Source: Candidatus Omnitrophota bacterium (lineage in GTDB: Bacteria > Ratteibacteria > UBA8468 > MWAK01). Taken from it: a stretch of DNA of 13,519 nt. Positions 5,514-13,331 of this stretch are shown here, one piece after another; the first letter of the stretch is position 1; each line of letters opens with the position of its first letter. The stretch covers positions 1 through 13,519 of the forward strand of contig JAZDPL010000008.1 in the NCBI GenBank assembly GCA_043797665.1, given 5' to 3'. A program made the translations under genes and the position numbers. Below the pieces are notes generated by a model. It worked only from the letters and a program-made list of their open reading frames with translations. It ran no database searches and had not been told where the DNA came from.

Positions 5514-5765
5514 TTATTTATAAACTTCTCCGCGATGCCCAATCGCGCGAACCCAGATTGTTTTACTGCCAAAATCTGGCGTGTAAATAATACGTAAAGG
5601 TGGTATTTTAATACGATACGAACCCTGAAATTCCCCTTCCATTTTTTCACCTAAAAATGGGTTGGTTGCCAAAAGAATGAGCGATTTCGCCGCTTTCTTT
5701 TGAGATATTTTATCAGATTTTTTTAGAAATTTTTCGGCCTGGTTTGAGAGTTTTACGCGAAACAT
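5514..5765 (-). CDS. Type II TA toxin, RelE/ParE superfamily
   Basis: 83 aa, basic; MFRVKLSNQAEKFLKK..NPFLGEKMEG..SYRIKIPPLRIIY..RAIGHRGEVYK fits RelE. Start set at ATG 5765; directly downstream of the antitoxin. Confidence 0.9.
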   Translation of the reverse strand: MFRVKLSNQAEKFLKKSDKISQKKAAKSLILLATNPFLGEKMEGEFQGSYRIKIPPLRIIYTPDFGSKTIWVRAIGHRGEVYK

Positions 5766-6072
5766 ATTTTTTGTTTTTTTCCGCAACCAAGAGATTTTTT
5801 AAATTTAACTCTTCAATAATTTCATCTAAATCACAATACCGACCGGCCTTAATATCTTCATCCCCTTCTCGAATAGATTTCATCAACTCCGGATCGGAAA
5901 GAGTCTCCAATGTCGCTATCCAGCCGTCAAACTCCTCTTTGCTCATAATTACCGCCTCCGGAACCCCTTTTACGGTGATATTAATTGGAAAAGGGCTTCT
6001 TTTGACTTTTTCCAAAAGGCCGAAAAAGTTATTTCTTGCTTCCGTAGCATTAATATAGTTTTGTGAAGCCAT
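5713..6072 (-). CDS. Type II TA antitoxin, Phd/YefM family
   Basis: INATEARNNFFGLLEKV..PINITVKGVPEAVIMSKEEF..ATLETLSDPELMKSIREG is a typical Phd/YefM profile; AGGAGG RBS at 6082-6077; overlaps the toxin by 53 nt. Confidence 0.93.
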   Translation of the reverse strand: MASQNYINATEARNNFFGLLEKVKRSPFPINITVKGVPEAVIMSKEEFDGWIATLETLSDPELMKSIREGDEDIKAGRYCDLDEIIEELNLKNLLVAEKNKKYVSRKTLKPGRKISKKI

Positions 6073-6439: not shown

Positions 6440-6469
6440 TTGACAGATAAAAGGCCGTTGTGTTAAATT
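6440..6469 (+). promoter_or_regulatory. sigma70 promoter of the arsenic operon
   Basis: TTGACA (6440-6445), 18 bp, TAAATT (6464-6469) preceded by TGn. Confidence 0.65.
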
Positions 6470-6471
6470 AG

Positions 6472-6491
6472 TTATGAACGTTTGTTCATAA
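6472..6491. promoter_or_regulatory. Palindromic operator candidate
   Basis: TTATGAAC-gttt-GTTCATAA, a perfect 8-4-8 inverted repeat between the -10 box and the GAGGGGG RBS of the DUF134 gene, covering the expected +1. Confidence 0.75.
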
Positions 6492-6503
6492 TGAGGGGGT
6501 CTC

Positions 6504-6812
6504 ATGAGGCCTAAGAAAATCAGGTGGATTAAATGCGCTCCCGGAGAAAGGTGTTTCCGGCCGCGTTGTAAACCGCTTAAGGAACTACGGGGCGTATATC
6601 TGACGCTGGACGAATTTGAGGCGATAAGGCTGGCCGACCTGGAAGAGATAAAACAGGAAGAAGCGGCAAAGCGGATGAGAATCTCCCGGCCGACTTTTTC
6701 ACGCATTGTAAATTCAGCCCGCAAGAAAATAGCCGATGGCCTGGTTAATATCAAGGCGATACGAATTGAGGGGGGCTGCTGTAAGATTATACCGAAAAGG
6801 TATCGGGTATGA
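6504..6812 (+). CDS. DUF134 family HTH protein, Cys-rich variant; probable operon regulator
   Basis: MRPKKIRWI..FRP..LTLDEFEAIRLADLEEIKQEEAAKRMRISRPTFSRIVNSARKKIADGLVNIKAIRIEGG matches DUF134. Cys at positions 11, 17, 22, 92, 93. Confidence 0.9.
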   Translation: MRPKKIRWIKCAPGERCFRPRCKPLKELRGVYLTLDEFEAIRLADLEEIKQEEAAKRMRISRPTFSRIVNSARKKIADGLVNIKAIRIEGGCCKIIPKRYRV

Positions 6813-7762
6813 TAAGAATATTTAGTGATTGGGTTGTTTATAAAGTACTCTCAATTTCGCCTGATACACTTCTGGGGAATGCAGTAAACTTTTTTTTGTA
6901 TGATACGATAAAGATATTTTTGCTTTTGTTGGTGATTATATTTGTTATTTCATTTGTCAGGACTTTCTTTCCGCCGGAACGAACCAGGAATATCTTAAGC
7001 CATAAACAGAAATATACGGGGAATATCGTTGCCGCGTTACTTGGAATCGTAACACCTTTTTGTTCCTGCAGTGCCGTACCGTTATTTTTAGGGTTTGTCG
7101 AAGCTGGAATTCCCCTGGGAGTGACGTTTTCTTTTCTGGTTTCTTCTCCCATGATTAATGAAGTGGCTCTGGTAATGCTCTGGGGGATGTTTGGATGGAA
7201 GATAGCGCTTGTTTATATCGTAAGCGGATTTTTCATTGCTGTTGTGTCAGGAATTATTATCGGCACGCTGAAAGTTGAAAATCTTCTGGAAGATTTTCTC
7301 TCGAAGGAAAGAACGTGTTGTCCAAATAAGTTATTGGGACCATCCGTAGAGGAAAGATTAGGCTACGCCAAGAATTACACCGGTGATATCATAAAAAGAA
7401 TCTGGCTGTTTGTATTGTTTGGTATTGGTATAGGTGCGTGGATACACGGCTATGTTCCGAGTGATTTACTCGTCAGGTATGCCGGCAAGGATAATTGGTT
7501 TGCTGTACCTATTGCAACCTTGATAGGTATTCCTCTTTATTCAAATGCCGCCGGAGTAATACCCTTAGTAAGCGTTTTAACCGAGAAAGGTGTGGGCATG
7601 GGTACGGCCTTAGCGTTTATGATGGCTGTGACCGGGCTTTCCTTACCAGAGTTTTTACTACTTAAAAAAATCATGAAACCCAGGCTGATTTTGATTTTTG
7701 CCGGTGTTGTGGGTATCGGAATAATTTTTATAGGATACTTATTTAATCTTATTATACGTTAG
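6809..7762 (+). CDS. arsP: ArsP-family (DUF318) permease, probable methylarsenite efflux
   Basis: TPFCSCSAVPLFLG, GIPLGVTFSFLVSSPMINE, GIPLYSNAAG and ALAFMMAVTGLSLPE motifs; ATGA overlap with DUF134; ars context. Substrate is inferred. Confidence 0.88.
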   Translation: MIRIFSDWVVYKVLSISPDTLLGNAVNFFLYDTIKIFLLLLVIIFVISFVRTFFPPERTRNILSHKQKYTGNIVAALLGIVTPFCSCSAVPLFLGFVEAGIPLGVTFSFLVSSPMINEVALVMLWGMFGWKIALVYIVSGFFIAVVSGIIIGTLKVENLLEDFLSKERTCCPNKLLGPSVEERLGYAKNYTGDIIKRIWLFVLFGIGIGAWIHGYVPSDLLVRYAGKDNWFAVPIATLIGIPLYSNAAGVIPLVSVLTEKGVGMGTALAFMMAVTGLSLPEFLLLKKIMKPRLILIFAGVVGIGIIFIGYLFNLIIR

Positions 7763-7767
7763 ATATT

Positions 7768-8034
7768 ATGAAAATAGAGATTCTCGGGATGGGTTGTCCC
7801 AAATGCAAAGCACTGGCTGCCAATGTGGAAGAGGCAGTCAAAGAATTGGGTGTAGAAGCAGAAATCGTGAAGGTGACCGAAATCAGCCAGATTATGAATT
7901 ATGGGGTGATGATGACGCCGGCCCTGGTGGTTGACGGCGAGGTCAAAAGCGCCGGGAAAGTTCTGATTAAAGAAGAGGTCAAAAAGATATTGCAAAAAAC
8001 GGAGGTGACCAATGGCGGAGAAGGGAAAGGGTAA
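7768..8034 (+). CDS. Small redox-active disulfide protein (MTH895-type thioredoxin family)
   Basis: MKIEILGMGCPKC..YGVMMTPALVVDGEVKSAGKV; this family commonly follows arsP. Confidence 0.92.
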   Translation: MKIEILGMGCPKCKALAANVEEAVKELGVEAEIVKVTEISQIMNYGVMMTPALVVDGEVKSAGKVLIKEEVKKILQKTEVTNGGEGKG

Positions 8035-8476
8035 ATCGTCCAATCGGTTGGGTAGAAGACTTATATTTTTAATCGCCGGGATGGTCCTTGCGGTTATCGT
8101 GGCAACCATAACGGTGTCGGATTCAGACCGGAAATCAGAAAGTGCGGCACAGCCAAAATTACCCCGGCTGGTTGACCTGGGTGCCGGTAAATGCATACCC
8201 TGCAAAATGATGGCGCCAATTCTGGCGGAATTGAAAAATGAATATGCCGGCGCATTAGATGTGGAAGTCATTGATATCTATGAAGATCAGTCAGCCGCCC
8301 GAAAATATAAAATCAGGCTGATTCCGACCCAGATTTTCCTGGATAGAGAAGGCAAAGAAATTTACCGGCATGAGGGTTTTATGTCCAAGGAAGATATTCT
8401 GGAACAGTGGAAGAAATCAGGATTTGACCTGGTAAAAAATAAAAAATCGGAACAAAAAAACAGGGTTGAAAAATGA
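8012..8476 (+). CDS. Membrane-anchored thioredoxin
   Basis: Basic N-terminus plus one hydrophobic helix, then LVDLGAGKCIPCKMM (CxxC) and IPTQIFLD (cis-Pro loop); GGAGGTG RBS. Confidence 0.9.
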   Translation: MAEKGKGKSSNRLGRRLIFLIAGMVLAVIVATITVSDSDRKSESAAQPKLPRLVDLGAGKCIPCKMMAPILAELKNEYAGALDVEVIDIYEDQSAARKYKIRLIPTQIFLDREGKEIYRHEGFMSKEDILEQWKKSGFDLVKNKKSEQKNRVEK

Positions 8477-9174
8477 TACAAAATCTTTTTCTTGCTTTGA
8501 CACACGCGGTTGAAGGTACACCCGTCCTGGCGCTTTCCGCCTCTTTTGTCTGGGGTATCCTGAGCATTATCTTAAGCCCCTGCCATTTAGCCAGTATTCC
8601 TCTGATTGTGGGATTCATCGGCGAACAGGGGACTATTTCCACCGGAAGGGCATTCCGGTTAGCAACACTCTTTTCCATTGGGATTCTTATAACCATTGCT
8701 CTCATCGGAATTATCACTGCTCTTCTGGGAAGAATGGCCGGCGATATAGGACCCTGGGGTAATTACCTGGTAGCGGGTGTTTTCTTCCTTGTGGGGCTAC
8801 ACCTTCTGGAAATTATTACCCTGCCAATGATGCAAGGGGCAAATCAGCCTACCCTGAAAAGGAAAGGGTTACTGGCTTCTTTTATCCTGGGGCTGGTTTT
8901 TGGGATTGCTCTCGGACCCTGCACTTTTGCCTACATGGCTCCGATGCTGGCGGTAACTTTCCGGATCGCGGCAGACCGGTTTTTATACGGGGTAGTTCTG
9001 CTTTTAGCATACGGAATCGGCCATTGTTCCGTCATCATTTTTGCCGGTACGTTTACCGAAGCGGTGGAACATTACCTGCACTGGAACGAAAAGTCAAAAG
9101 GGATTTCCGTGTTGAAAAAAGTCTGCGGGATTCTGGTCATTCTGGGCGGCGCGTATATGCTCTGGATTGCTTAA
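8473..9174 (+). CDS. ccdA: CcdA/DsbD-type transmembrane electron transporter
   Basis: Two PC motifs (LSPCHL, LGPCTF), about six TM helices, LLAYGIG; ATGA overlap with the anchored thioredoxin. Confidence 0.88.
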   Translation: MIQNLFLALTHAVEGTPVLALSASFVWGILSIILSPCHLASIPLIVGFIGEQGTISTGRAFRLATLFSIGILITIALIGIITALLGRMAGDIGPWGNYLVAGVFFLVGLHLLEIITLPMMQGANQPTLKRKGLLASFILGLVFGIALGPCTFAYMAPMLAVTFRIAADRFLYGVVLLLAYGIGHCSVIIFAGTFTEAVEHYLHWNEKSKGISVLKKVCGILVILGGAYMLWIA

Positions 9175-9214: not shown

Positions 9215-9379
9215 ATGGATACGAAAAAGATTATCAGTCTTGACGAAAACGATTTGCTCAGAGTTGAGCAGATCATCCTTGATCGCGACAAAGAAGAAGC
9301 GTTTGCTTTTGTTAAAGAAGTGATTAAAAGACAGATTGACAGGGGAAATGCCTCGAAGATGCGAAGAGAAAATATCTGA
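9215..9379 (+). CDS. Small hypothetical protein, 54 aa (absent from the ORF track)
   Basis: ATG 9215 to TGA 9379: MDTKKIISLDENDLLRVEQIILDRDKEEAFAFVKEVIKRQIDRGNASKMRRENI. Fills the ccdA-arsM gap on the operon strand, amphipathic helical pattern; RBS weak. Confidence 0.7.
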   Translation: MDTKKIISLDENDLLRVEQIILDRDKEEAFAFVKEVIKRQIDRGNASKMRRENI

Positions 9380-9399
9380 TATTGAAGCAAGGGTTAGAA

Positions 9400-10257
9400 A
9401 TGGGAAGAAAAGCAGAAGAAATTAAGAAACTCGTAAGAGACGGTTACGCCAAAGTCGTAACACAAGGGACATCCTGTTGTTCCTCGAGTTCTTGCTGTAC
9501 AAGCGCAAACTTAGCCCAAGATATCAGTAAATCTGTTGGCTATAGCGATGAAGAAATGAGCGTGGTTCCTGAAGGTGCTAACTTAGGACTTGGCTGCGGC
9601 AATCCGGTGGCGATTGCATCCCTTAAAGAAGGTGAAGTCGTGTTGGACCTCGGCAGCGGCGGCGGGTTTGACGTATTTCTGGCTGCCCAAAAAGTCGGTC
9701 CCGCGGGTCGGGTCGTCGGGGTGGACATGACCCCGGAAATGGTCGGCAAGGCACGCCGCAATATACCGGCCTTCCGTAAACGAACGGGACTGGACAACGT
9801 GGAGTTCCGTCTCGGTGAAATAGAACATCTGCCCGTAGCCGACGCGAGCGTGGACATCGTCATTTCCAACTGCGTAATCAATCTTTCGCCGGACAAACCG
9901 CAGGTGTGGCGAGAAATCGTCCGGGTGCTGAAGCCCGGCGGGCGCGTGGCGGTTTCCGATCTGGCGCTTTTACGGCCTTTGCCGGAAGCAATCCGTGAAT
10001 CCGTTGCCGCGCTGGTCGGCTGCATTGCCGGTGCGGTTTTCGTGGACGACACGCGGAAAATGGCAACCGCCGCGGGGCTGGTAAACCTGGTTCTGACACC
10101 GAAGCCTGATTACGTGGAGAATATGGCCGACTGGAACGACCCGTCCTACCGGACAATCCGTAAGCATTTTCCCAAGGGACGGACAATGAGCGACTACATC
10201 GTAAGTTTGTACCTCGCGGCGCGAAGGCCGGGGGCCGGTGGAAAGGAGCTTAAATGA
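9400..10257 (+). CDS. arsM: Arsenite S-adenosylmethionine methyltransferase
   Basis: SCC..SCC N-terminus, LGLGCGNP, VLDLGSGGGFD (SAM motif), ISNCVINLSPDK, VLKPGGR, GCIAGA. Start set at ATG 9400 rather than TTG 9382. Confidence 0.95.
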   Translation: MGRKAEEIKKLVRDGYAKVVTQGTSCCSSSSCCTSANLAQDISKSVGYSDEEMSVVPEGANLGLGCGNPVAIASLKEGEVVLDLGSGGGFDVFLAAQKVGPAGRVVGVDMTPEMVGKARRNIPAFRKRTGLDNVEFRLGEIEHLPVADASVDIVISNCVINLSPDKPQVWREIVRVLKPGGRVAVSDLALLRPLPEAIRESVAALVGCIAGAVFVDDTRKMATAAGLVNLVLTPKPDYVENMADWNDPSYRTIRKHFPKGRTMSDYIVSLYLAARRPGAGGKELK

Positions 10258-10451
10258 ACGCATTGGTTGTAGTGGACGGCTATGCGGAAATCGGAGCAGG
10301 CAGCGACGGCGTTGTACTCGCCACCGGCCGTGAATGTCTGAAGGGATGCTGTGCGGGATGTGCGGTGCCCTGCGCCGTATTCAAAGCCATGCAGGTTGCG
10401 GCGGGCGTTGCACTGCCGAAGGACGTCACCATTCGGATTACCAAGGAGTGA
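10254..10451 (+). CDS. Small Cys-rich hypothetical protein, 65 aa
   Basis: AAGGAG RBS and ATGA overlap with the arsM stop; motif CLKGCCAGCAVPC. Confidence 0.7.
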   Translation: MNALVVVDGYAEIGAGSDGVVLATGRECLKGCCAGCAVPCAVFKAMQVAAGVALPKDVTIRITKE

Positions 10452-10571
10452 CGCGCGGCCATTGCCGTCGGGCGCATGGTTGAAAAGGGTTCGGTGTCCG
10501 CCATGCGAGATTTTGCAGAGAATATTTTGGATTCGTCGAGGCAGAATGCCTCGGCTAAGGAGGAATGACCG

Positions 10572-11375
10572 ATGAACTCACCGAATGAAGAACAGAAACA
10601 GAAGGACAACATGGAATCGCTGAAGCAACAGGCCTCGGTCTGTAGGCCTGAATGCGGCTGCCACGCCACCGGGGCGTCGGGTCGAATACGTTGGGTGCTG
10701 GGAGCAATCGTGCTGGTCGCCGCCGCGGCGATGGTGGCGCGGGCCCTGATAAAGAGTAACAGGGCATCAACCCAGCCGTCGGCGCCCGCTTTTGAGGCAC
10801 CCGCCGGGGTACAGATGCCTGCACCCGAAAGTGATTCAGCCGCACCTTCCGTGAAAATCGGGAGGACTTCAGAGGTAATGCCGGGGAAGAAAACCGGTTC
10901 CGCCACACCCTCCGTCCAAGTTCAGAAGCCCTCGGACTCGAAGGATAGGAAGGGGAATGCTTCCGCTGCACCACCAGTCACAAACACCAAGGAATCGGAA
11001 GCGGTTGTAGGGAAAAAAATCGGGGCGATTTCGGAGTTGAACACAGTAGCCGTCGATGTCGACGCCGTTTTCGTATTTTTGCCCGGCAAGAATACTGCCG
11101 GTAGCAGTCTTCCTACGGTCCAGATCAACGGCGCCATGCGGACGATTGAAGCGCAAGGACAGAAGATCGGTCTTTTCACGCTGAAGACGGACTCGCGCGA
11201 CTACGAGAACATTGCGGCACAAGTGTCTGTGCCCGCTGTTCTGGCGATGGTCAAAGGGCGCGGGATGAGCGCGGTTTCCGGCGATATTACGGAAACGAAA
11301 CTTGTACAGGGGTTCGTTGCGGCTTCGAGGGCCGGTGGCTGTGGGTCGGGTTGCGGACCATCCGGTTGCAATTAA
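10572..11375 (+). CDS. Single-pass membrane protein with Cys motifs at both termini and a possible thioredoxin-like domain
   Basis: AAGGAGG RBS (alternative start 10611). CRPECGC, RIRW plus hydrophobic helix, Pro/Ala/Ser/Lys linker, alpha/beta domain (DAVFVFLP..SVPAVLAMVKG), tail GGCGSGCGPSGCN. Confidence 0.8.
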   Translation: MNSPNEEQKQKDNMESLKQQASVCRPECGCHATGASGRIRWVLGAIVLVAAAAMVARALIKSNRASTQPSAPAFEAPAGVQMPAPESDSAAPSVKIGRTSEVMPGKKTGSATPSVQVQKPSDSKDRKGNASAAPPVTNTKESEAVVGKKIGAISELNTVAVDVDAVFVFLPGKNTAGSSLPTVQINGAMRTIEAQGQKIGLFTLKTDSRDYENIAAQVSVPAVLAMVKGRGMSAVSGDITETKLVQGFVAASRAGGCGSGCGPSGCN

Positions 11376-11387
11376 GGAGAAAACGAC

Positions 11388-12089
11388 GTGCTTAAGTCCA
11401 TAACAACCATACTTCAATCCGCCGGCACGGGAGCGGCGGCCTTGCCGTTGGCGTTCCTGTTGGGACTGGTGAGTGCGGTGGCGAGCGCTTGTTGCACCTT
11501 ACCGGCCATGGGCATGCTGGTGGCCTACTCGGGCACGCGACAGGACGTAACCCGGCGTTCAACACTTGCGTCAACGGTCTGGTTCCTGGTCGGAACCACA
11601 CTGTCGCTGATTATTCTCGGGTTTGTGGCCGGGTTTGTCGGCCAGACGGCGCAGGTGTTTCTTGGACGATATTGGAAGCTGTTCGCGGGGGCTGTAGCGG
11701 TACTCCTGGGGCTGGCAACGTTGAAACTGCTTCCCTTCAGGCTGCCGAACCGCACTCGGAAGGACGGCGAGCCTTCGGCTTCCGGAGGAAAGATAGGCGC
11801 CGCGCTGGGGGGACTGTTTCTTGGCGGCGGTGTAGCGGCCTGTTCCCTGCCGTGCAACCCGGGCATCTTTATCGTACTTGGCGCGGCGGTACTGCAAGGA
11901 CATATCCTGTGGGCTATGGCTTTGATGACTGCTTTTGCGATCGGTTTCAGCCTGCCGCTCAGCGCCATCCTGTTCGGTGTGTCTTTCGGCAAAGCGTCCA
12001 TCAAGGCACAGAAAGCGGACGCCGCGATCCGAACCATTGCCGGCATACTGCTTGTCGGAATAGGATTTTATTTCTTTGCGACGTTCTAA
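11388..12089 (+). CDS. Second CcdA-like membrane protein with atypical Cys motifs
   Basis: GTG start with AAGGAG RBS; about six TM helices. AFLLGLVSAVASACCTLP and ACSLPCNP sit at the CcdA Cys positions; AFAIGFSLP and AGILLVGIGFY are CcdA-like. Confidence 0.75.
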   Translation: MLKSITTILQSAGTGAAALPLAFLLGLVSAVASACCTLPAMGMLVAYSGTRQDVTRRSTLASTVWFLVGTTLSLIILGFVAGFVGQTAQVFLGRYWKLFAGAVAVLLGLATLKLLPFRLPNRTRKDGEPSASGGKIGAALGGLFLGGGVAACSLPCNPGIFIVLGAAVLQGHILWAMALMTAFAIGFSLPLSAILFGVSFGKASIKAQKADAAIRTIAGILLVGIGFYFFATF

Positions 12090-12155
12090 GCGAAAGGAAG
12101 AAATGACCGGTGGAATTATTAATTATTTAAGACAAAAGATTTGGGGGAGGTGGGA

Positions 12156-13331
12156 ATGGAACGTACGGCGAAAAAAGAAAGAGGGCTGTCCATATTTGAC
12201 AGGTATTTGACGGTTTTCGTATTTCTGTGTATCGGAATCGGCATCGTTTTGGGGAAGGCCGCGCCGGGTGCGGCAAAGTTCCTGGACGGTCTGGCAATCT
12301 ATGTGGGTGGAGCGCCGGTTGTTTCAATTCCGATTGCCGTCTGCTTGTTTTTTATGATGTATCCCATCATGGTAAAGATTGACTTTGCGGAAGTTTTGAA
12401 GGCTGGTAAAAGCATAAAACCGGTCGGACTGACTTTATTTGTCAACTGGGCAATTAAGCCGTTTACGATGTATGCCATCGCGCTCTTCTTTCTGGGATTT
12501 CTGTTCCGGAACCTGATTGGCGCCGAAGCCTTAGACTATGTAAAGATACCTTTCGGGCTGAATCTGCCGGTCGGAGCCACCCACGGCGCGGGTACCGTAG
12601 TACTGTACAACGGAGTAAAGATGTTAGCGGTGCCTTTGTGGCGGAGTTACCTGGCCGGCTGTATCCTTCTTGGTGTTGCGCCCTGCACCGCCATGGTACT
12701 GGTCTGGGGATACTTAGCGAAGGGAAACGACGGACACACCCTGGTGATGGTGGCAATCAATTCCCTGTCTATGCTTCTTTTGTATGGTCTGTTAGGAGGT
12801 TTTCTTCTCGGCGTGGGTCGGCTCCCGGTACCCTGGCAGGCTTTGGTTCTTTCCATCGGAATTTACGTGGCTTTGCCTCTGGTAGCGGGTTATTTCACCC
12901 GAAAAAGGCTGATAAAAGCAAAAGGTGAAGCCTGGTTTACGGAAAAGTTTCTCCACCGACTCACACCCGTTACGATTATTGCACTTTTAATAACCCTGAT
13001 TCTCTTGTTCTCTTTCAAAGGCGAGATAATTCTCTCAAACCCCTTGACGATTCTGTGGATTGCCATCCCCTTATTTATTCAGACCAACCTTATTTTCTGG
13101 TTGGGGTATTTCCTGGCTAAGGCGTTGAAACTGACCTACGCGGATGCCGCCCCTTCTGCCATGATTGGCGCCTCCAACCATTTTGAAGTGGCAATCGCCA
13201 CCGCCACGATGCTCTTCGGGCTTTCTTCCGGTGCGGCTTTAGCCACCGTGGTCGGAGTCCTGATTGAAGTTCCGGTGATGCTGATGCTGGTAAAAATCTG
13301 CCTGCGTACCCGGCACTGGTTCCCCGGATAG
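12156..13331 (+). CDS. acr3: Acr3 family arsenite efflux transporter
   Basis: [53 protein letters not shown] and [12 protein letters not shown] motifs; GGAGGTG RBS before ATG 12156. Confidence 0.96.

Follow-up and report, generated by a model that had tools for sequence, protein, structure and literature searches.

What controls an ars operon that has no gene for an ArsR repressor at its head? This question is raised by the stretch of DNA analyzed here (the window, 13,519 bp), which represents the entire contig C69 of genome G000 (2.69 Mb, 86% complete) and whose ars operon starts with a gene for a protein of the DUF134/UPF0251 family. An earlier note on this DNA proposed that a DUF134 subfamily gained Cys ligands and that this member of it acts as an arsenic sensor in the place of ArsR.

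The ars Operon and Its First Gene

The gene in question (6504–6812, plus strand) encodes a protein of 102 amino acids that matches the DUF134 profile PF02001 with a score of 92.3 bits (cut-off 27), over model positions 6–95 of 98, along with weak Sigma70_r4 matches in the Pfam profile search, and that we annotate as a predicted As(III)-responsive autorepressor. The score and the gene order bear out its placement at the head of the operon; position 6440, given earlier as its start, is the −35 box, and the open reading frame begins at 6504. The translation of 6504–6812 does carry the residues that had been pointed out (C11, C17, C22, and a C-terminal GGCC comprising C92 and C93), with no CxC and no Cys C-terminal of C93, and its recognition helix, part of a sigma-4-like helix-turn-helix (HTH), reads S61-R-P-T-F-S-R-I68. 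No ArsR/SmtB profile (HTH_5, HTH_20, NF033788) matches this protein at E ≤ 0.001 in Pfam or NCBIfam, and no MarR family is present among its Pfam and NCBIfam matches. All five Cys are retained in 117 of the 120 top homologs (query counted). The family as a whole is large (4,290 matches at E ≤ 0.001 among representatives clustered at 50% identity), and in the 150 best family representatives the Cys are mostly absent (C17 is found in 13, C22 in 5, C92 in 8, and C93 in 11).

Behind the DUF134 gene, the same strand carries ten more, spaced −23 to +120 bp apart. These are an arsP-family permease gene (6809–7762; PF03773 ArsP_1, 275 bits), whose start overlaps the DUF134 stop in the ATGA at 6809–6812, suggesting translational coupling of the two; a gene for an MTH895/ArsE-family small thioredoxin (7768–8034; TIGR00412, 108.6 bits, cut-off 62); a gene for a thioredoxin-like protein (PF00085) with a stretch, read from its sequence, that is hydrophobic and N-terminal (8012–8476); a gene for a CcdA/DsbD transmembrane protein recognized by Pfam and NCBIfam profiles (8473–9174); a 54-amino-acid open reading frame encoding a hypothetical protein (9215–9379); arsM for arsenite methyltransferase (9382–10257; NF008823, 338 bits, cut-off 263), with the ATG at 9400 as the likelier start; a gene for a small Cys-rich DUF6951 protein (10254–10451, a profile match); a gene for a hypothetical protein with Cys-rich ends (10572–11375, read from the sequence), with one homolog in the ars operon of locus L017; a gene for a second CcdA/DsbD transmembrane protein (11388–12089, a profile match); and acr3 for the arsenite efflux permease (12141–13331; TIGR00832, 374 bits, cut-off 283). 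The window CcdA was considered as a true ArsG and rejected, scoring 53 bits with the NCBIfam profile against a cut-off of 200. The roles of ArsP, Acr3, and ArsEFG are drawn here from passages of two papers (PMC6205960; PMC9144182), and in the former ArsP is described as an exporter of MAs(III) and trivalent roxarsone, not of As(III).

Some further features of the window and of related loci deserve mention. The 54-amino-acid open reading frame, of no known family, recurs in DUF134-led ars operons, usually right before arsM. The window ArsM is closest (76%) to that of locus L369 from the same family. GC content rises from about 42% to 57–61% over positions 9500–12000, from arsM to the second CcdA gene, which marks the operon as a mosaic. 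Divergent from the operon, a pair of genes for a Phd/YefM antitoxin and a ParE-type toxin (5514–6072, minus strand) lies within a low-GC stretch (36–44%), at the left edge of the island. An MtrA-like corrinoid-protein homolog is encoded in three DUF134-led loci, in one of them (L120, 15525–16214) between arsG and acr3.

Homologous loci were sampled in two ways. A set of 160 close loci, 153 of them distinct, was taken from GTDB (80, mostly titled Omnitrophota) and from metagenomes (80). Where these have room downstream (143 loci), the next recognized gene is arsP in 130, acr3 in 6, arsM in 5, and a thioredoxin or a CcdA/ArsG-type gene in one each, i.e., arsP, acr3, or arsM stands next to DUF134 in 141 of the 143, and arsF, arsG, and ArsC-like genes recur farther downstream. 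As this set was chosen with a pattern that contains GGCC, conservation of the CC pair in it is partly built in, and the set informs on gene context, not on Cys specificity.

A Clade of Cys-Bearing DUF134 Proteins Tied to ars Genes

The second sample was an unbiased control, comprising the 151 genomes of the phylum of one Omnitrophota genome (G043), searched for DUF134, acr3, and ArsR; 78 of them gave the 123 DUF134 matches above the cut-off, and the surrounding DNA was read for each. In a tree built without the five Cys columns, 61 of these proteins and the window protein form a single clade (SH-aLRT 98). In a second tree, from which the helix columns were also removed, a free quick search missed the clade, while a tree constrained to contain it scored higher (p-AU 0.90), the group used for the constraint having been named after the first tree was seen. 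With the context labels assigned by neighbor genes alone, an ars gene lies within 1.4 kb of 58 of the 61 clade members and of none of the 62 other DUF134 genes. The Cys-bearing members thus form a clade tied to ars genes, the point that the earlier note had proposed to check with a DUF134 tree. The first gene after the clade DUF134 is arsP in 42 cases, acr3 in 12, arsC in 2, and arsM in 2. Among the 62 others, 30 are labeled as NifX-linked; a plasmid collection yielded 197 records, all of less than 60% identity, and of these the two annotated examples looked at are likewise linked to NifX. None of the records searched pointed to a cultivated organism with a member of the Cys clade, and a search of the ESM Atlas returned DUF134 clusters only.

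Within the clade, C11 is present in 59 of the 61 members, C17 in 58, C22 in 38, C92 in 57, and C93 in 58. As C22 is lost in 23 members (replaced by H, G, and others), and as C11 is also found in 15 of the 62 non-ars DUF134s, in all of which position 22 is Gly, only C17, C92, and C93 mark the ars clade specifically. Of the Cys named in the earlier note, C22 is dropped as a core ligand, and C11, being partly ancestral, is dropped as an ars-specific gain. No single Cys is invariant across the clade. At least three of C11, C17, C92, and C93 are kept, however, in 57 of 57 full-length ars-linked members. C92, C93, or both are lost in each of the three members outside ars context (L265, L216, and L279), and three ars-linked members (L262, L289, and L290) have only one Cys of the CC pair (counts 54/0/3/3). 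As kin are not independent, the comparison of CC loss with ars context amounts to only two independent pairs on the tree, and the tree-independent contrasts, numbering one or two per trait pair tested, are too few for significance, the association of the Cys with ars context being essentially that of one clade and a single evolutionary event. C22 is kept in 33 of 41 arsP-first members versus 3 of 12 acr3-first members, a comparison that includes one independent pair. The three members outside ars context precede open reading frames that read, by eye, as rhodanese and TauE (L265), CDF and TauE (L216), and TolC and RND (L279), and these proteins may possibly have been re-tuned to other signals.

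An Operator That Changes with the Recognition Helix

The predicted promoter of the operon consists of a −35 box, TTGACA (6440–6445, plus strand), the best plus-strand site in the promoter scan with 10 of 12 matches, and an extended −10 box, TG-n-TAAATT (6461–6469, plus strand), recognized by the same scan and from the sequence. Just 2 bp past the sigma-70 −10 box begins an 8-4-8 palindrome, TTATGAAC-GTTT-GTTCATAA (6472–6491, no strand assigned), the predicted DUF134 binding site, and it is followed by a Shine-Dalgarno-like GAGGGGG (6493–6499, plus strand). The palindrome, which had gone unnoticed in the earlier note, covers the predicted start site, and this location, downstream of the −10 box, is that of a repressor. 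It occurs once in the window, versus 0.01 occurrences expected, and is the only perfect site in G000.

This palindrome is conserved in homologous loci. With at most 2 mismatches, it is found within 90 bp upstream of the start in 158 of the 160 close loci, and of the other two, one has it at −193 and one has a symmetric variant with 4 mismatches. In 125 of the 159 homologous loci with an operator, a −35-like hexamer begins 30–32 bp ahead of it, the spacing being nearly fixed across the close loci. In the unbiased sample, the operator lies near the start in 59 of the 61 clade members; of the remaining two, one is cut by a contig end and the other has its box one gene upstream. One genome (G148) encodes two divergent DUF134 paralogs, each with a box of its own. 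The core of the operator, TGAACA-N2-TGTTCA, is similar to sites found before non-ars ArsR genes in Omnitrophota (L295, L318, and L320), and the SmtB/AzuR-type sites listed in PMC8790569 (Table 2) resemble it as well, while the CadC box of L. monocytogenes, as given in a passage of a preprint (bioRxiv 10.64898/2026.09.30.755606), is of the opposite orientation.

Most of the sampled DUF134 genes, ars-linked or not, are preceded by an 8-4-8 box whose inner four bases track residues 61–64 of the protein. Counting both arms, the helix SRPT is paired with GAAC in 56 of 62 cases, HRST with GCAC in 41 of 44, SRQT with TGGC or TAGC in 52 of 60, SQQT with GAGT in 27 of 32, and HQST with GCAT in 4 of 4. 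Position 8 of both arms is C in 88 loci whose protein has Arg62 and T in 19 whose protein has Gln62; three further loci have mixed arms, and the 13 of 123 loci that have no usable palindrome were left out. The Arg62/Gln62 change took place twice on the tree, in separate lineages and with the same outcome in the box, which is too few for a sign test. Arg-G and Gln-A are standard pairings in the major groove. GAAC arms also occur with an SRPT helix outside ars context, in the NifX-linked L182 and L205. That the arms change with the recognition helix is the strongest indirect indication of a direct binding of the palindrome by DUF134, and it weighs against a trans-acting ArsR as the protein that binds it. 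Boxes of other kinds were noted in passing in the non-ars DUF134 clades (L172–L294), of the types TTATTGGC and TTATTAGC before NifX-linked DUF134 genes and of the type TTATGAGT in the SQQT clade, in which no downstream gene is consistent.

Predicted Structure

A model built from 144 sequences (mean pLDDT 80.9) predicts a three-helix HTH core (35–46, 51–57, and 62–81, at pLDDT of 90–96) and short strands at 7–9, 17–18, 30–33, 85–88, and 93–95, of which the first and the last, at termini with pLDDT of 61–65, are predicted to meet. In an earlier model from a narrow alignment, the termini (1–23 and 82–102) were unusable, at pLDDT below 50. The best fold matches are sigma region 4 domains (1rp3_A, Z 6.9, rmsd 1.7 over 53 residues, approximately 13–84), in agreement with the sigma-region-4-like HTH that the earlier note had given for the family, the resemblance covering only the HTH core, a common arrangement. 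Foldseek returned nothing at E ≤ 0.001, and a sequence search for a solved DUF134 structure found none, with only a DeoR HTH matched.

In a mean-field analysis (Meff of about 207), the couplings W8-K94 and K10-D45-G90 rank within the top 45, and C17-G30, R19-L28, L28-A85, and G30-R87 are consistent with the predicted sheet, while the direct Cys-Cys couplings rank 263–4274 of 4278. The W8-K94 coupling would place C11 near C92 and C93. A putative trithiol site drawn from C11, C17, C92, and C93 is plausible.

DUF134 in the Place of ArsR

The earlier note found no ArsR/SmtB gene in the window, and our profile searches and tblastn not only agree but extend this finding to the 86%-complete G000. Of the NF033788 matches in this genome, three in number, none exceeds the cut-off, PF01022 matches three proteins of 266–377 amino acids, which read by eye as GntR/LacI-, wHTH-ATPase-, and DeoR-like, and five ArsRs of relatives find nothing in G000 by tblastn at E ≤ 0.01. 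None of the ArsR profile matches in the genome lies on C69.

In the 151 genomes of the control, the two regulators exclude each other at the head of acr3 operons. Within 8 kb upstream of the 73 acr3 matches (70 genomes), the same-strand regulator is DUF134 in 41 cases and ArsR in 11, both in none, and neither in 21 (Fisher p = 3.6e-5, a value overstated by kinship). One example is presented by loci L349 and L350, in which the same arsP-arsE-arsF-arsG-acr3 operon (with arsM also, in L349) is under ArsR and has other palindromes; the ArsR-led ars operons of Omnitrophota in general carry palindromes unlike the DUF134 operator. At E ≤ 1e-10, some ArsR match is found in 31 of the 59 genomes that encode a Cys-clade protein and none in the other 28. 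There are exceptions: L124 and L126 have ArsR-size genes farther downstream (at 1.7 and 5.2 kb, respectively), L290 has one beside it in divergent orientation, and in G144 and G068 acr3 has a divergent ArsR gene upstream, at 3.9 and 5.7 kb, respectively, the DUF134 of G144 retaining its own box. The loci with neither regulator were considered as the domain of a third regulator type, and this was rejected, as in the 19 of 21 that were fetched neither ArsR nor DUF134 is present at the head, most being lone acr3 genes, and two end at a contig edge inside an ars cluster. Among these loci, L338 (in G192) has a complete arsP-arsM-arsEFG-acr3 operon whose head lacks a regulator, and in L329 a gene that reads by eye as MerR-like precedes acr3. 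Most acr3-leading ArsRs of Omnitrophota (L344–L354) have an N-terminal CxC and a C-terminal CC, and several of their loci share an operator of the type ACTATATCTGC-N4-GCAGATATAGT.

As to the origin of the regulator in the window genome, of the 65 genomes compared from its phylum, G000 alone encodes a DUF134 protein. In the acr3 regions fetched from 12 relatives, ArsR is found beside the ars genes in five (four of the same family) and DUF134 in none, and in three members of the family arsP is preceded by a common operator of another kind. The import of the regulator is therefore likely. The window acr3 and CcdA are 97% and 93% identical to proteins of G001, of the same genus, whose contig stops short of the operon head. 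The best match of window positions 6461–7935 is to Omnitrophota loci (about 69% nucleotide identity), with arsP alone being non-discriminating (70% vs. 67%). As judged from these comparisons, the likeliest history would be that a head consisting of the operator and DUF134 was imported into a resident ArsR-type operon, displacing ArsR.

A Model and Its Alternatives

Taken as a whole, we favor, as reasonably probable, the reading that the Cys-bearing DUF134 is an As(III)-released autorepressor built on a sigma-4-like fold, which replaces ArsR at the operon head. In such a mechanism, a DUF134 dimer would bind both arms of the palindrome through helix 61–68, and the bound dimer would cover the start site and block RNA polymerase, repressing its own gene and the operon; this part we hold to be very probable. 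Then As(III) (MAs(III) or Sb(III) probably acting likewise) would bind three thiols among C11, C17, C92, and C93, causing a shift of the N- and C-terminal strands that would free the DNA, a step that is probable if the dimer binds as described. In 14 of the 61 members the gene next to DUF134 is acr3 or arsC, and these operons, which include minimal DUF134-acr3(-arsC) ones, favor inorganic As(III) as the ligand.

The same operons bear on two other readings of the Cys residues. DUF134 may repress through the palindrome while the signal for its Cys is thiol oxidation, persulfide, or a soft metal other than arsenic, the induction of the ars genes being indirect, as the operons do include thioredoxins and CcdA-type proteins, a vicinal CC is capable of forming a disulfide, other DUF134 genes precede NifB/NifX, MrpORP, and TauE genes, and two clade members outside ars context (L265 and L216) stand, by eye, before rhodanese/TauE or CDF/TauE genes. 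We consider this unlikely, as 58 of 61 members precede ars genes, 14 of them leading acr3 or arsC directly, as the ars-linked members always keep at least three thiols, and as C92/C93 were lost in the members that moved to sulfur or CDF genes. A sensor that is selective for MAs(III) and uses only the C92-C93 dithiol, like SpArsR, described in passages of PMC11868830 as having two Cys and responding to MAs(III) only, would fit the prominence of arsP, the gene for an MAs(III) exporter, as the first cargo gene (in 42 of the 61 clade members and in 130 of the 143 close loci with enough DNA downstream), and the excess of C22 in arsP-first members hints at tuned variants. However, the acr3- and arsC-first operons need induction by inorganic As(III), C11 and C17 are conserved as well as the CC, which is not intact in three ars-linked members, and the C22 trend rests on one independent pair, making this reading quite improbable.

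Two further readings concern the palindrome itself. One is that an ArsR/SmtB protein encoded elsewhere binds it, the DUF134 gene being accessory or a passenger. In its core, the SRPT-type box does resemble SmtB/AzuR sites, the gene for AzuR is far from its target (both as given in passages of PMC8790569), and G000 is 86% complete, with some ArsR encoded in 31 of the 59 genomes with the clade. However, the box changes with the DUF134 helix, in non-ars paralogs too, other clades having their own versions; ArsR-led ars operons, in Omnitrophota and in the family of the window genome, use different palindromes; ArsR-type palindromes in G000 amount to two matches with 2 mismatches on other contigs, neither a convincing site; and no ArsR was found in G000 or in 28 of the clade genomes. 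We thus regard such trans control as very improbable. The other, that DUF134 binds the box as an activator or a sigma-4 mimic, is suggested by sigma region 4 domains being its closest folds (Z 6.9), but this match is limited to the HTH core, and a box that overlaps the predicted start site of a near-consensus promoter, past its −10, is placed like that of a repressor, so this we find hardly credible.

Returning to the As(III)-released autorepressor, its wider form is one to which we lean, slightly on the probable side: the DUF134 family as a whole would consist of sigma-4-like autorepressors whose helix-operator code can be read, and one clade of it would be a third independent As(III)-sensing scaffold, after ArsR and MarR_ars, leading most regulated ars operons of Omnitrophota (41 vs. 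11 for ArsR), as an inter-phylum cassette of operator and regulator that displaces ArsR. If true, this would provide the first ligand and DNA target for the widespread DUF134 family, extend the small set of known As(III)-sensor folds by one, and mean that surveys using arsR as a marker miss most regulated ars operons of Omnitrophota, many with arsM. The 102-amino-acid protein and its 20-bp operator may also make an ArsR-independent biosensor part, and the helix-operator code predicts operators for the NifX- and Mrp-linked DUF134s.

In the main texts of open papers, our searches brought up none that connects DUF134 with arsenic or with an operator; regulon predictions may exist in supplements or subscription papers. 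In the passages seen on DUF134/UPF0251, mentions are incidental, with no ligand or target described, and the literature on arsenic and arsM in Omnitrophota and on ars operons lacking arsR gave no description of a DUF134 system.

Comparison with Known Systems

The ArsR/SmtB repressors (R773 ArsR, AfArsR, CgArsR, SpArsR, and ArArsR) share with DUF134 the first place in the ars operon, a palindrome over their own promoter, a size of about 100 amino acids, and Cys available for a trithiol site, and ArsR heads the same gene set in Omnitrophota and in the family of the window genome. The difference is in the fold, a winged helix in ArsR versus a sigma-4-like HTH with a small predicted beta-sheet in DUF134, which has no ArsR/SmtB profile match and a different operator. 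The As(III) sites of ArsRs, as passages of PMC11868830 describe, consist of three Cys and arose at differing places. The analogy with AfArsR drawn in the earlier note is a loose one: a C-terminal vicinal CC is common to both, but the AfArsR site is a CC-x5-C in the C-terminal helix (PMC11672702, section 3.2.2.3), whereas the DUF134 CC is at the end of a predicted strand. An AfArsR-type geometry is rejected for DUF134, as no Cys lies downstream of the pair, and a third ligand would need to be supplied by the N-terminal part. The other ArsR motif, a CxC in alpha-3, is absent from the protein as well.

The closest functional precedent is MarR_ars (AdMarR_ars, from Achromobacter As-55), likewise a subfamily with gained Cys in a non-ArsR family. 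In its description (bioRxiv 10.1101/2021.08.12.456183), three conserved Cys, a vicinal pair and a distant one, are reported, with repression of ars genes until As(III) or Sb(III) binds. It differs in being a MarR winged-helix protein with the CC near the N-terminus, in regulating arsV/arsP/arsN, and in having been shown experimentally.

The other DUF134/UPF0251 proteins (PF02001), encoded beside NifB/NifX, a P-loop ATPase, or MrpORP, have the same HTH and related 8-4-8 palindromes upstream of their own genes, but they are without C17, C92, and C93, have G22 in 62 of 62, precede ars genes in 0 of 62, and have other arms. Finally, the 12-2-12 operators of SmtB, CzrA, and AzuR (alpha-5 and alpha-3N types), as tabulated in PMC8790569 (Table 2), have the core TGAACA-N2-TGTTCA in common with the DUF134 box, but the latter is flanked by TTA...TAA, and in the sister DUF134 clades the cores (GCAC, GAGC, GCAT, TGGC, and GAGT) track the recognition helix.
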